This document shows, one piece after another, positions 3,023 to 25,064 of a DNA stretch of 64,000 nt (the first letter of the stretch is position 1; every line of letters begins with the position of its first letter). Source of the DNA: Escherichia coli (lineage in GTDB: Bacteria; Pseudomonadota; Gammaproteobacteria; Enterobacterales; Enterobacteriaceae). Both the position numbers and the translations under genes were made by a program. Location of the stretch: assembly GCF_016026235.1 (NCBI RefSeq), contig NZ_CP065613.1. One strand, written 5' to 3'. The notes under the pieces are model-generated. The model worked only from the letters and a program-made list of their open reading frames with translations, did no database searches and was not told the DNA's origin.

Positions 3023-3050
3023 AAAAAAAACGCCGGATTAACCGGCGTCT
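3023..3050 (-). terminator. rho-independent terminator downstream of fadD
   Basis: hairpin cgccggattaaccggcg followed by a run of 8 T on the minus strand. Confidence 0.5.
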
Positions 3051-3067
3051 GACGACTGACTTAACGC

Positions 3068-4753
3068 TCAGGCTTTATTGTCCACTTTGCCGCGCGCTTC
3101 GTCACGTAATTCTCGTCGCAAAATTTTTCCGACGTTAGATTTCGGTAACTCATCACGAAACTCCACCAGCTTCGGTACTTTGTATCCCGTGAGCTGACGG
3201 CGGCAAAAAGTCACCAGTGACTCTTCGGTAAGCGATGGATCTTTTTTCACTACGAAGATTTTCACCGCTTCACCACTGGAGCCGGAAGGTACGCCAACAG
3301 CCGCGACTTCCTGTACGCCAGGATGCTGCATGACGACATCTTCAATCTCGTTGGGATAGACGTTAAAACCGGAAACCAGAATCATGTCTTTTTTACGATC
3401 GACAATGCGCAGGAATCCTTCTTCATCCATTACCGCGATGTCGCCGGTGTGTAACCAGCCATTTTTGATGATTTCATCGGTAGCATCGGGACGCTGCCAG
3501 TAACCCAGCATCACCTGCGGTCCTTTGACACAAAGCTCACCCGGTTGACCTGGTGGTACTTCATTATCATCATCATCCACCAGTTTGGCTTCCGTCGACG
3601 GCACCGGCAAACCGATGCTACCACTATGATAATCAATATCATATGGGTTAACGCTGACCAGCGGCGCACACTCGGTAAGGCCATAGCCTTCCAGCAGATA
3701 CTGTCCTGTCAGTTTCACCCAACGCTCTGCCACCACTTGCTGCACTGGCATCCCTCCGCCTGCGGAAAGATGCAGACTGGAGAAATCCAGCTGCTGGAAC
3801 TCTTTATTGTTCAGCAACGCATTGAACAAGGTGTTAACGCCCGTGATAGCGGTAAACGGATATTTCGCTAACTCTTTTACCAACCCTGGAATATCGCGCG
3901 GGTTAGTGATAAGCAGGTTCTGCCCACCCAGTTCGATAAACAGCAGGCAGTTAATGGTCAGGGCAAAAATGTGATACAGCGGCAGCGCCGTCACCACCAG
4001 CTCTTTGCCCGGATGCAACAGCGGACCATAGGTCGCGTTAACCTGTTCCAGGTTCGCCAGCATATTGCGGTGAGTCAGCATCGCGCCTTTCGCCACACCA
4101 GTGGTGCCGCCGGTGTATTGCAGAAAAGCTAAATCTTCCGGCACCAGTTCGGGTTTGACGTACTGCATCCGGTAGCCGTTATGCAGTGCGCTACGAAATG
4201 AAATGGCATCTGGCAGATGGTATTTCGGCACCAAACGCTTGATGTATTTAACAACGAAATTGACTACCGTGCCTTTTGCCGTAGATAGCTGATCGCCCAT
4301 ACGGGTCAGAATTACGTGCTGAACGGCGGTTTTATCAACCACTTTTTCCAGTGTGTGAGCAAAGTTAGACACGATAACAATCGCCGATGCGCCGCTATCG
4401 TTAAGCTGATGCTCAAGCTCACGCGGGGTATACAACGGGTTAACGTTTACGACGATCATCCCGGCACGCAAAATGCCAAACAGCGCCACCGGATATTGCA
4501 ATAAATTAGGCATCATCAACGCAACGCGATCGCCTTTCTTCAGCCCCAACCCTTGTTGCAAATAAGCGGCAAACGCGCGACTGCGTTCTTCCAGCTTGCG
4601 GAAGGTCATCACCTCCCCCATATTCACAAACGCAGGCTGATCGGCGTAGCGCGCGACCGACTGCTCAAACATATCTACCAGAGATTGATAACGGTCAGGG
4701 TTGATCTCCGTCGGAACGTCCGCGGGATAACGGTTAAGCCAAACCTTCTTCAA
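3068..4753 (-). CDS. fadD: long-chain fatty acid-CoA ligase FadD
   Basis: Protein recognised as FadD; annotated N-terminus MKKVWLNRY corresponds to a TTG start 22 codons inside the 583-aa track ORF. Confidence 0.9.
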
Positions 4754-20690: not shown

Positions 20691-21551
20691 GTGAGCGAAA
20701 TGGTTGATACAACTCAAACTACCACCGAGAAAAAACTCACTCAAAGTGATATTCGTGGCGTCTTCCTGCGTTCTAACCTCTTCCAGGGTTCATGGAACTT
20801 CGAACGTATGCAGGCACTGGGTTTCTGCTTCTCTATGGTACCGGCAATTCGTCGCCTCTACCCTGAGAACAACGAAGCTCGTAAACAAGCTATTCGCCGT
20901 CACCTGGAGTTCTTTAACACCCAGCCGTTCGTGGCTGCGCCGATTCTCGGCGTAACCCTGGCGCTGGAAGAACAGCGTGCTAATGGCGCAGAGATCGATG
21001 ACGGTGCTATCAACGGTATCAAAGTCGGTTTGATGGGGCCGCTGGCTGGTGTAGGCGACCCGATCTTCTGGGGAACCGTACGTCCGGTATTTGCAGCACT
21101 GGGTGCCGGTATCGCGATGAGCGGCAGCCTGTTAGGTCCGCTGCTGTTCTTCATCCTGTTTAACCTGGTGCGTCTGGCAACCCGTTACTACGGCGTAGCG
21201 TATGGTTACTCCAAAGGTATCGATATCGTTAAAGATATGGGTGGTGGCTTCCTGCAAAAACTGACGGAAGGGGCGTCTATCCTCGGCCTGTTTGTCATGG
21301 GGGCATTGGTTAACAAGTGGACACATGTCAACATCCCGCTGGTTGTCTCTCGCATTACTGACCAGACGGGCAAAGAACACGTTACTACTGTCCAGACTAT
21401 TCTGGACCAGTTAATGCCAGGCCTGGTACCACTGCTGCTGACCTTTGCTTGTATGTGGCTACTGCGCAAAAAAGTTAACCCGCTGTGGATCATCGTTGGC
21501 TTCTTCGTCATCGGTATCGCTGGTTACGCTTGCGGCCTGCTGGGACTGTAA
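20691..21551 (+). CDS. manZ: PTS mannose transporter subunit EIID
   Basis: 286-aa ORF recognised as ManZ. Confidence 0.9.
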   Translation: MSEMVDTTQTTTEKKLTQSDIRGVFLRSNLFQGSWNFERMQALGFCFSMVPAIRRLYPENNEARKQAIRRHLEFFNTQPFVAAPILGVTLALEEQRANGAEIDDGAINGIKVGLMGPLAGVGDPIFWGTVRPVFAALGAGIAMSGSLLGPLLFFILFNLVRLATRYYGVAYGYSKGIDIVKDMGGGFLQKLTEGASILGLFVMGALVNKWTHVNIPLVVSRITDQTGKEHVTTVQTILDQLMPGLVPLLLTFACMWLLRKKVNPLWIIVGFFVIGIAGYACGLLGL

Positions 21552-21605: not shown

Positions 21606-22064
21606 ATGACAATCACGGACCTGGTACTGATTCTTTTCATCGCCGCACTCCTGGCCTTCGCGATCTACGATCAGTTCATCATGCCCCGCCGTAACGGCCC
21701 CACCCTGCTGGCAATTCCTTTGCTCCGGCGTGGTCGCATCGATAGCGTTATCTTCGTCGGATTGATTGTCATTCTTATCTATAACAACGTCACGAATCAT
21801 GGTGCGTTAATAACGACATGGTTATTAAGCGCACTGGCTCTGATGGGTTTTTATATATTCTGGATCCGCGTTCCGAAGATCATCTTTAAACAAAAAGGTT
21901 TTTTCTTCGCCAATGTCTGGATTGAATATAGCCGAATCAAAGCGATGAACTTGTCGGAAGATGGCGTGTTGGTGATGCAATTAGAACAGCGTCGGCTGTT
22001 AATCCGCGTTCGAAATATCGACGATCTGGAAAAAATTTATAAGCTTCTCGTATCAACTCAATAA
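21606..22064 (+). CDS. yobD: UPF0266 inner membrane protein YobD
   Basis: 152-aa ORF recognised as YobD. Confidence 0.85.
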
Positions 22065-22264
22065 TTTATGAATTTAGCCAAAGCTATGTTTAGTGTATTT
22101 TTAATAATCAGACATAGCTTAGGCTATATTATCTCTTCCCTTATTTGTTATTTATATTAACGTTTCATTGATATATAAATCTAAATGAAAATCGTTATCA
22201 ATAAAGCAATGAAATAATATATTCCAACAGTTGTTTTATATTCTCAAAATATGTTAAGGTTGCG

Positions 22265-22440
22265 CCCTCATTTGGGGAGTAGCCAATTTCCAGATTCCGG
22301 AAATGTACGTGTCAACATACTCGTTGCAAAACGTGGCACGTACGGACTGAACACTTTCAGTCAGGCGAGACCATATGCACATCAATCGCTATGCCTGCAT
22401 GAACGCGAAAACCATCGCGGCTTGTTGTTCATGTATGCAT
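22265..22440 (+). promoter_or_regulatory. yybP-ykoY manganese riboswitch in the mntP 5' leader (approximate extent)
   Basis: Conserved TTGGGGAGTAGCC element at 22272..22284 in a long leader upstream of mntP; E. coli mntP is known to carry this riboswitch. Confidence 0.6.
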
Positions 22441-22492
22441 GTTTGCTGGGGGCGATGATGTGTTTTATGGATACCCCGGTCAGGACGTTGTC

Positions 22493-23059
22493 ATGAATAT
22501 CACTGCTACTGTTCTTCTTGCGTTTGGTATGTCGATGGATGCATTTGCTGCATCAATCGGTAAAGGTGCCACCCTCCATAAACCGAAATTTTCTGAAGCA
22601 TTGCGAACCGGCCTTATTTTTGGTGCCGTCGAAACCCTGACGCCGCTGATCGGCTGGGGAATGGGCATGTTAGCCAGCCGGTTTGTCCTTGAATGGAACC
22701 ACTGGATTGCGTTTGTGCTGCTGATATTCCTCGGCGGGCGAATGATTATTGAGGGTTTTCGTGGCGCAGATGATGAAGATGAAGAGCCGCGCCGTCGGCA
22801 CGGTTTCTGGCTACTGGTAACCACCGCGATTGCCACCAGCCTGGATGCCATGGCTGTGGGTGTTGGTCTTGCTTTCCTTCAGGTCAACATTATCGCGACC
22901 GCATTGGCCATTGGTTGTGCAACCTTGATTATGTCGACATTAGGGATGATGGTTGGTCGCTTTATCGGCTCAATTATTGGGAAAAAAGCGGAAATTCTCG
23001 GCGGGCTGGTGCTGATCGGCATCGGCGTCCAGATCCTCTGGACGCACTTCCACGGTTAA
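22493..23059 (+). CDS. mntP: manganese efflux pump MntP (YebN)
   Basis: Recognised as MntP; start taken at [21 protein letters not shown] inside the 206-aa track ORF. Confidence 0.85.
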
Positions 23060-23865
23060 TAAGAACGCTGCCAGAGGTGAATATTAAAGTCCGTCTGGCA
23101 GTCGAACACTTCTTTTGCTGCCAGTGTTTGCCAGACTTCTGGCTTCGCACGCCAGGCAAACGGCGTCATCTGCAATAATGCGACGGCTTCATCACCGCGA
23201 AGACGCATCGGATAACACAACTCCGCACTCTGCTGTAATGTAAAACCTTCCAGTTGTTCTGCATGAGGTGCATGAAGATGTACTTCATTGTAAATCAGCC
23301 CCTTCAGCTCCATCAAATGTCGCGGTCCCGGCGTGGCAGTAATGACCCAGCCGCCGGGCTTCACTACTCGTGCTAATTCTTCTGCTTTACACGGCGCGTA
23401 AATACGTATTATGGCGTCCATACTGGTATCGGAAAACGGCAAACGGTGGCTGGAAGCGACACAAAAAGTGACCTGCGGATAGCGTTTCGCCGCCGCTTTT
23501 ATCGCTACCTTCGAAACATCCAGACCAAACGTGGTGATTTCGGGCAACGCATCGGCAAATGCGTGTGTGTAATACCCTTCACCACAGCCAATATCCAGCA
23601 CCGCCGTGGCCTTATCATCAAGCCGTTCCCTCAGTTGGGCGACAATTGCATCACGCAGCGGCTGATAATGTCCGGCATCTAAGAATGCGCGGCGTGCTTG
23701 CATCATTTCCGCGCTGTCGCCCGGATCACGAGACCGTTTATGCTGAACGGGCAGCAGATTGACATACCCTTCTTTCGCCATATCAAACTGATGTCGCTGG
23801 GGACAGATATAGCTGTTTTTTTCACGCGAAAGAGGCTGATGGCAAAGTGGACAGGGAAAAGACAT
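23056..23865 (-). CDS. rlmA: 23S rRNA m1G745 methyltransferase RlmA
   Basis: 269-aa ORF with N-terminal Zn-binding cysteines and SAM motif DIGCGEGYY. Confidence 0.9.
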
Positions 23866-23957
23866 GACAACTCCGGCAGGATACTAAAGGCCGCAAGTGT
23901 AACGCGAATCACGCGGCGGGCAAATATCCGAACGCCAGGAGCGAAGATAAAGCATAG

Positions 23958-23985
23958 TAAAAAGCCTCGCATTCGACGAGGCTTT
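23958..23985 (-). terminator. rho-independent terminator downstream of cspC
   Basis: gcctcgtcgaatgcgaggc hairpin followed by T-run on minus strand. Confidence 0.55.
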
Positions 23986-24030
23986 ATAGCGAGATTGAAG
24001 CGTATTCACACTTCAGATCAGTGGATTCGA

Positions 24031-24240
24031 TCAGATAGCTGTTACGTTAACAGCTGCCGGACCTTTCTGGCCGTCCTGAATTTCGAACTCAACGTTCTGA
24101 CCTTCAGCCAGAGTTTTGAAGCCATTACCCTGGATAGCGGAGAAGTGTACGAACACGTCTTTGCTGCCATCAGCCGGAGTAATGAAGCCAAAACCTTTAG
24201 ACTCGTTGAACCACTTAACCTGACCTTTAATCTTTGCCAT
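24031..24240 (-). CDS. cspC: cold-shock-like protein CspC
   Basis: 69-aa [23 protein letters not shown]... Confidence 0.95.
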
Positions 24241-24252
24241 TTGAAAAATTCC

Positions 24253-24396
24253 TTAGATTGTTTTCTTCGCCCGCAGGCATAACATAGATAAAACTGACAC
24301 ATTACTGCATGAGGCACCAATATAAGGCTCGGCAGAGAAGCGGTATTCAACGTCAACGTGTTTACTCAGGACTTCTTTACTGAAAATGCCACACAT
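24253..24396 (-). CDS. yobF: small protein YobF
   Basis: Manual translation of minus strand gives 47 aa [47 protein letters not shown]; below the track cutoff. Confidence 0.85.
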
Positions 24397-25064
24397 AAAC
24401 AGAACTGTACCTCGTTTAACCCGAAATCTGTTATCACATACAACGTTAATTATGGCAAGCCATTTTTAAACATGTCTCGATCAGACGCACAAATCTCGAT
24501 ACGTCTTCCACTTTTTTTGCACACTTATGCAACGGAATACGCGCTGATATATCATTGTGCTTAACCTTGCCAGTTCAGGCAGATACTTAAACTGGCGTAT
24601 TTTCTAACATAGTTCAATAAGTTCAGTTGTTCCAGGCCAGTGGGAGAAGTTATTACATAGTGCGTGCAATATCACATTTTTTGCTATGCAATGAATAAAA
24701 AGTTATATCACTTTTTCTCATAAAACAGTCAGTTAACGGCTATCAATTACCCTAAAGAGAAGTCAATCCCCAAAGGGATTGAAAATTTAAAATAAGAAAA
24801 ATTGATGAATGAGCAAAAAATCAAGAAAGAAACGTTTCGCTAATAAATAATACCACGCTTAATCACAAATCCGATGTAAACATCCTAATAAATTAATGAG
24901 GAAAATATCTTTTTCTGATATCCCGTTACGCAAATAAATAATATGATAATTATTTGAAGTCAGACCAGAGTTTTAATTTGAAGCAGTTGCACCATGGCAG
25001 TGCGTATAATCAGGATGAATTGAGTAACCCTTCAACGACGGGGTTACTCAAGATTGAGGAAGGA

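Follow-up and report, generated by a model that had tools for sequence, protein, structure and literature searches.

The 5' leader of Escherichia coli mntP and its yybP-ykoY manganese riboswitch: aptamer, expression platform and upstream sites

What does the long spacer ahead of the manganese exporter gene mntP contain, and how could it act on that gene? The question comes from a 64-kb stretch of Escherichia coli DNA, hereafter the window, in which the gene order is manZ-yobD-mntP-rlmA, followed by cspC and yobF, with rlmA on the strand opposite to mntP; the product of mntP is labelled manganese efflux pump MntP in the genome annotation. A sequence-only reading had placed a manganese (yybP-ykoY) riboswitch in the mntP leader at 22265-22440, within a spacer of 375 bp. 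Our answer is that the segment 22269-22492 is almost certainly the 5' leader of the mntP mRNA and carries the E. coli yybP-ykoY Mn2+ riboswitch, and this confidence includes the full switching explanation that is given below. The identification itself stands, being carried by a four-way junction, base-pair covariation, a covariance-model match and the MntP gene downstream. The range holds at its start region only, because its end at 22440 matches no feature; the aptamer occupies 22269-22377 and the leader runs to 22492. The spacer length was wrong: with the start codon ATG 22493, on which PGAP and the K-12 record agree, the yobD-mntP spacer is 22065-22492, or 428 bp, and the figure of 375 bp arose because the longest ORF in the mntP frame, from ATG 22439, was used. 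Of 5426 complete E. coli genomes, 5422 contain the spacer, taken as 22065-22500.

The mntP riboswitch is already known and is not a discovery of this work. It has reportedly been characterised genetically, biochemically and structurally since 2015. Among its sources on the mntP element, PMC12153347 names Dambach 2015 and Price 2015 as well as 4Y1M, the crystal structure of the apo form. That the E. coli mntP leader binds Mn2+ selectively and mediates induction by Mn2+ has been reported (PMC12153347, PMC9603457 and PMC11647493, with Dambach 2015 and Price 2015 as cited in them). The locus in the window is the same as that of the characterised riboswitch (PMC12153347, PMC11647493, PMC9603457), and the earlier description of it as a known E. 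coli regulatory RNA was right.

The conserved element on which the proposal had been based is indeed present upstream of the exporter gene and on the same strand. TTGGGGAGTAGCC occurs once in the window, at 22272-22284 on the + strand (0.09 occurrences expected, with one mismatch allowed), and the longer signature GGGGAGTAG-N29-TCAACATAC-N46-GAGACC also occurs once, at 22274-22372, and in none of 100 shuffles. Folded alone, the 115 nt from 22266 to 22380 adopt the four-way junction as their MFE structure (-37.5 kcal/mol, z -3.74), the elements of which are listed in Table 1. The L1 motif, GGGGAGUAG, is represented by GGGGAGTAG at 22274-22282; the adenosine A11 (mntP numbering), which makes a cross-helix A-minor contact from L1 (PMC12153347), corresponds to 22278. 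The L3 motif, UCAACAUAC with UGG opposite, is represented by TCAACATAC at 22312-22320 and TGG at 22334-22336, both of which are invariant throughout the 121-sequence alignment described below; L3 together with L1 forms the metal site. The fold also agrees with the published mntP numbering, in which A11 lies in L1, A48 is the first nucleotide of L3 and the aptamer is complete near nt 110 (PMC12153347). The end of the aptamer at 22377 lies 115 nt before the MntP start. Within E. coli, aptamer variants occur only at 22284 (C-G to U-G, which still pairs), at 22285 in the junction and at 22352 in the P4 loop.

Table 1. Features of the mntP locus, leader and upstream region (positions in the window)
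Feature	Position	Strand	Details and basis
manZ	20691-21551
yobD	21606-22064		DUF986
Candidate MntR-type palindrome 1, ATTTAGC-CAAA-GCTATGT (ATTTAGCCAAAGCTATGT)	22072-22089		two mismatches to ACATAGCnnnnGCTATGT
Candidate MntR-type palindrome 2, ACATAGC-TTAG-GCTATAT (ACATAGCTTAGGCTATAT)	22112-22129		one mismatch to ACATAGCnnnnGCTATGT
Fur-box-like sequence, AATGAAAATCGTTATC	22184-22199		two mismatches to core AATGATAATCATTATC; 0.04 expected in window
Putative weak promoter, TTGTTT-18 nt-TAAGGT	22231-22268	+	start ~22264-22268; hexamers read from sequence
Mn2+ aptamer, four-way junction	22269-22377 (109 nt)	+	fold, covariation, covariance-model match, partial RF00080 match
P1.1	22269-75 with 22371-77
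L1	22276-81 and 22367-70
P1.2	22282-84 with 22364-66
P2	22286-22304		6 bp: 22286-91/22299-22304
P3.1	22305-14 with 22334-43
L3	22315-21
P3.2	22322-33
P4	22345-62
Platform helix H1	22378-89 with 22452-62 (segment 22378-22462)	+	MFE folds, compensatory changes
Hairpin insertion of ~51 nt at the tip of H1	22391-22441		lineage-specific
G-tract segment X (AUGUUUGCUGGGG), candidate partner of C-tract and Shine-Dalgarno	22439-22451	+
UAUGG, alternative partner of the P1.1 3' strand CCAUA (22371-75)	22466-22470	+
C-tract CCCCGGU	22474-80	+	read from sequence
Shine-Dalgarno AGGA	22482-85	+	read from sequence
mntP start codon	22493-95	+	PGAP and K-12 agree
mntP CDS, regulated gene	22493-23059	+	188 aa; Pfam Mntp PF02659, E 1.7e-55

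Strong independent tests come from relatives in other bacteria. These were found by the three unpaired motifs only, with one genome per species, and comprise at least 120 loci from Firmicutes, Cyanobacteria, Alpha-, Beta- and Gammaproteobacteria and Desulfovibrio; the 24 motif bases used for the selection have no independent weight, whereas the helices do carry weight. When the E. coli structure was mapped on the alignment of 121 sequences (the 120 listed relatives and the window), 85.8% of the cells were standard pairs as against 31-42% in slid controls, the covariation score was 0.535 as against 0.09-0.15, and 990 cells were changed on both sides as against 163-326. A compensatory change is found in 29 of the 36 pairs; most of the others fall inside the selected motifs and are for that reason invariant. 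RNAalifold, applied de novo, recovered P1.1, P1.2, P3.1 and P3.2 together with the base of P4, and the same four-way junction emerges by vote from the single-sequence folds of 36 non-enteric members. A covariance model built independently of the E. coli sequence, from 36 non-enterobacterial members with the structure voted by their own single-sequence folds, has exactly one match in 64 kb, which spans the model from end to end at 22266-22380 (88.9 bits, E 7.7e-20). The gene context points the same way. With downstream genes called by stop-to-stop ORFs and seed searches, every relative with enough flank among the matches listed (116 of 116) precedes a divalent-cation transporter gene, which belongs to MntP in 47 cases, GDT1/UPF0016 in 59, the Na_Ca_ex type in 8 and CDF in 2.

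A scan with the Rfam covariance model had been named as the check on this element, and its outcome is divided. By E-value the match to Rfam 15 RF00080 ('Manganese', yybP-ykoY) is significant, with 40.1 bits and E 1.8e-8 at 22266-22362 in a 5-kb search and with 43.4 bits and E 1.1e-10 at 22272-22362 in a 301-nt search, yet both scores are below the curated gathering score of 45 bits, and RF00080 is absent here from the gathering-threshold Rfam scan of the window. The five RefSeq records inspected, including that of K-12 MG1655, contain no riboswitch annotation at this place; PGAP records lack it because the RF00080 score is below the gathering threshold. The low score and the absence from both the gathering scan and the PGAP annotation would suit a motif match that is a chance resemblance or the decayed relic of a riboswitch. 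However, the sub-threshold score comes from the model, not from the sequence. The RF00080 consensus as used here has no P1.1 and P1.2 pairs and represents the region after P4 as a long loop, and the shortfall arises because the P1 helices are missing from this consensus. In the RF00080 alignment of the E. coli sequence, P4 is placed in the terminal helix and the whole 3' strand (GGCGAGACCAUAUG) is dropped; in one relative (locus L010, 11808-11975), GGCGAGACC is aligned into the loop region of the model and gains score. Three of the 11 relatives that have all three motifs, namely E. albertii, a Nostoc and a Sphingomonas, likewise fail the gathering score, and the other 8 pass it (45.4-70.3 bits). 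The independent model of the canonical structure, by contrast, gives the E. coli sequence 88.9 bits; the leader is present in 5422 of 5426 E. coli genomes with variants only at tolerated positions; and the function has been shown experimentally (PMC12153347 and others). We give practically no credence to a chance match or a relic, and regard the element as the mntP riboswitch. A gathering score serves as a cut-off for annotation and does not describe the biology. In Rfam 15 the family's founding E. coli member falls below it and so is unannotated in RefSeq/PGAP genomes, K-12 included. This means that pipelines relying on the RF00080 threshold will miss the element and may call spurious small ORFs over the aptamer and platform.

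Open frames of this kind exist in the mntP leader. An 81-aa ORF at 22251-22496 spans the aptamer and the platform and ends in an ATGA that overlaps the mntP start. ATG 22375 sits within the P1.1 3' strand, and the frame that it starts is only 27 aa long in the window and in K-12. Where an extra C follows 22411, as in O157:H7 and other strains, the 81-aa ORF is closed and a 40-aa frame is opened from ATG 22375, and PGAP calls a 40-aa hypothetical protein, WP_000547919.1, in O157:H7 TW14359 (NC_013008.1) and PapM-32-1 (NZ_CP049204.1), in the region equivalent to 22375-22497. Both the ATGA overlap and the PGAP CDS could be taken to mean that the region encodes a small protein, by way of the 81-aa ORF or a uORF at ATG 22375, and that its conservation reflects coding constraint or coupling of the uORF to mntP. 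Several observations argue against this. The 81-aa frame matches no Pfam family, and the open frame is switched between E. coli strains by the 1-nt indel after 22411; E. albertii is without 13 nt and most other enteric leaders without about 52 nt. Outside Escherichia and one Citrobacter-like locus (L057), ATG 22375 is lost, the sequence there being ATAGG, ATAGA or ATTGG. The conservation, moreover, is that of base-pair covariation and not of codon periodicity. A small-protein gene is extremely unlikely on this evidence, and the conservation belongs to the riboswitch. The 40-aa CDS is probably a spurious gene call, which is possible because the riboswitch is unannotated. The leader ORFs of 81, 27 and 40 aa are artefacts of a structured non-coding leader; the sequence-only reading had already dismissed the first of them as spurious.

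Downstream of the aptamer, the expression platform was compared in an alignment of 17 enterobacterial leaders. Its helix H1 is supported by this alignment together with MFE folds and covaries, as AUCGC/GCGAU in Escherichia, ACUGC/GCAGU in Citrobacter and Enterobacter, and CACGUAA/UUACGUG in Serratia. Among the 17 leaders, only those of Escherichia- and Citrobacter-like genomes carry the ~51-nt hairpin that is inserted at the H1 tip; the E. albertii version is shorter by 13 nt, and Enterobacter, Serratia, Dickeya, Budvicia and others have none. The comparative data predict that the insertion is dispensable. In a published study of the 4WJ mntP aptamer, P1.1 is the switch helix and the switching point lies near nt 205 (PMC12153347); the insertion hairpin and H1 fit this point and the 'single helix' from about nt 175 in the same work. 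Within the insertion lie the C indel of 1 nt, for which E. coli strains are polymorphic, and the leader's only terminator-like site.

This site raises the possibility that the switch operates mainly by intrinsic termination, at the hairpin 22404-22419 and the following GCTTGTTGTT, in the manner of the B. subtilis and L. lactis members. Many family members are transcriptional, and the site is the sole terminator-like one in 22000-22560 (1 found, 0.3 expected). However, the hairpin has only 5 pairs and is followed by a broken U-tract, and as part of the lineage-specific insertion it is missing from most Enterobacterales and lies in a stretch 13 nt shorter in E. albertii. It does not overlap P1.1 and is not placed to compete with it, and mntP is classed as translational with Rho-dependent termination (PMC12153347, PMC11647493). 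The intrinsic terminator at 22404-19 was rejected, as it is not conserved across enteric leaders. We judge intrinsic termination very unlikely as the main switch, and retain translational control with Rho-dependent termination.

The platform also contains a second partner for the switch helix. The 3' strand of P1.1, CCAUA, is paired with UAUGG in the MFE structure of the full leader, which lengthens H1. The UAUGG site reads [U/A]AUGG in all 17 enteric leaders, and the pairing is kept in 14 of the 17, with one compensatory case in Shimwellia (CCAUU/AAUGG). Capture of the 3' strand of the switch helix is expected to take this form (compare PMC12153347).

For the pairing that would hide the Shine-Dalgarno sequence (SD), the platform alignment offers a candidate. 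Enteric leaders have a conserved G-tract, ACUGGGGG or GCUGGGGG, and the C-tract and UCAGGAC are conserved among enterics as well. In 16 of 16 enteric leaders, the duplex between segment X and the C-tract with the SD (X:Y, 22439-51 with 22474-88) is better than its shuffled counterparts (mean z -1.4 and -1.8), and a few compensatory changes occur, for example ACUGGGG:CCCCGGU vs GGUUGGG:CCCGGCC. Topologically, X:Y crosses H1, and thus it would form either a pseudoknot or an alternative to H1; where Enterobacterales lack the insertion, H1 has X as its apical loop. Conceivably X:Y gates the mntP ribosome-binding site (RBS), as an H-type pseudoknot or as a structure exclusive with H1, and capture of UAUGG by the P1.1 3' strand might shorten the linker and couple this gate to Mn2+ sensing. 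We offer this as a tentative suggestion that is rather unlikely to hold in full. Constrained equilibrium folding gave no gain in SD accessibility, the SD being unpaired at 0.05 with P1.1 enforced vs 0.21 without constraint. A further candidate, in which the freed 5' strand of P1.1/L1 pairs with the initiation region by analogy with alx, was rejected because it was no better than shuffles (-17.4 vs -16.7 kcal/mol, z -0.2). In the original model, Mn2+ disfavours a stem-loop that sequesters the RBS (PMC10197570); another study, which names the absence of ribosomes as a limitation, likewise saw the RBS in vitro show no clear dependence on Mn (PMC12153347). For the coupling of the aptamer to the RBS, the covarying H1, the conserved UAUGG, the conserved G-tract:C-tract pairing and the insertion provide testable pairings and features.

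We propose the following course of events, for which Mn2+ binding, the direction of the response and the role of Rho are taken from the literature, and the aptamer architecture with its covariation and genomic context, H1 and the anti-P1.1 complementarity from the present analysis. In the first 109 nt of the transcript, two coaxial legs (P1.1-P1.2-P2 and P3.1-P3.2-P4) meet at the four-way junction. At high cytoplasmic Mn2+, the ion would be held between L1 (GGAGUA...GAGA) and L3 (ACAUACU), and its binding would dock the legs and lock the short switch helix P1.1. At low Mn2+, P1.1 would open, its 3' strand CCAUA would be captured by UAUGG, and H1 would be extended; in this form of the leader the RBS would be poorly used and the untranslated RNA would be exposed to Rho-dependent termination. 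Rho-dependent termination inside the mntP leader, partly relieved by Mn, has been reported (PMC11647493). Mn2+ would in this way raise MntP synthesis in translation and partly relieve termination by Rho, and the response of the riboswitch would add to transcriptional activation by MntR from upstream sites.

Candidates for such sites are found upstream of the leader. Two MntR-type palindromes, at a spacing of 40 bp, together form an inverted repeat; they precede the mntP transcription start by roughly 150-190 bp. They are the two best matches in the window to ACATAGCnnnnGCTATGT, a consensus which we take to be that of the E. coli mntH MntR box, and palindrome 2 is the best match in 64 kb. Rfam matches to mir-282 on both strands of 22060-22141 (26.4 and 24.5 bits, well below gathering) were rejected, as they correspond to this MntR-type inverted repeat. 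MntR activates mntP at its promoter (PMC11647493, PMC9806134), and Fur also regulates the gene (PMC11647493). The Fur-box-like sequence sits about 70-85 bp upstream of the transcription start, a position that would fit the reported control by Fur. A second Fur-box-like sequence in the window, with two mismatches to AATGATAATCATTATC, lies at 3625-3640. The hexamers of the putative promoter fall under the promoter-scan threshold; we infer +1 at about 22264-22268 from literature numbering. The numbering in PMC12153347 (A11, A48 and completion of the aptamer near nt 110) gives +1 at 22268 and a 225-nt leader, and the 229-nt leader of PMC11647493 gives +1 at 22264.

Some observations concern the neighbourhood of mntP and other RNA loci in the window. 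The record NZ_CP065615.1 (locus L001) has an mntP leader 100% identical to that of the window and an rlmA flagged as a pseudogene ('internal stop'); the rlmA ORF of the window (23056-23865, 269 aa) is intact. On the - strand, an Rfam 'cspA thermoregulator' match of 135.7 bits at 23956-24416 lies over the cspC CDS and yobF, as placed by K-12 offset, and the same match occurs beside the mntP locus in Citrobacter and Dickeya (L006, L066). As the model spans the cspA coding region, this match probably reflects CspA/CspC paralogy and does not speak for a thermosensor. The antisense pair SraC/RyeA and SdsR/RyeB at 39903-40049, known sRNA loci, scores above Rfam gathering, as do a second, weaker RyeA-like copy at 40732-40831 (51.4 bits) and sroD at 3024-3109 on the - strand.

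Compared with known systems, the element belongs with mntP (yebN) of E. coli K-12, which has the same locus, the 428-bp spacer, the four-way-junction aptamer, the platform and the start codon. Within the aptamer the window has A vs G at 22285 in the junction and C vs T at 22352 in the P4 loop, both unpaired, and downstream of the aptamer it differs from K-12 at 22417 and 22487; none of these differences changes an aptamer base pair. The E. coli alx element (PRE) resembles mntP in the switch logic of L1 and P1.1, in translational control and in having an Mn exporter as its target, but differs in being without P2 (a three-way junction), in having another L3 and an intrinsic termination site in P4, and in responding to alkaline pH (PMC12153347). 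Unlike alx, the element in the window has a 6-bp P2 (22286-22304) and a consensus L3. The P2 columns covary in the 121-sequence alignment, with double changes in 6 of 6 pairs, and an alx-type three-way-junction variant was rejected on account of P2 and these changes. The aptamers of Xanthomonas oryzae and Lactococcus lactis, whose yybP-ykoY crystal structures are cited in PMC12153347, share the four-way junction, L1 and L3, the cross-helix A-minor adenosine and a downstream cation-exporter gene. A Xanthomonas relative (L027) is in our alignment, with MntP downstream. In L. lactis the family member acts on transcription by means of an intrinsic terminator, whereas no terminator is conserved in the E. 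coli leader, where a platform of about 115 nt extends to the SD.
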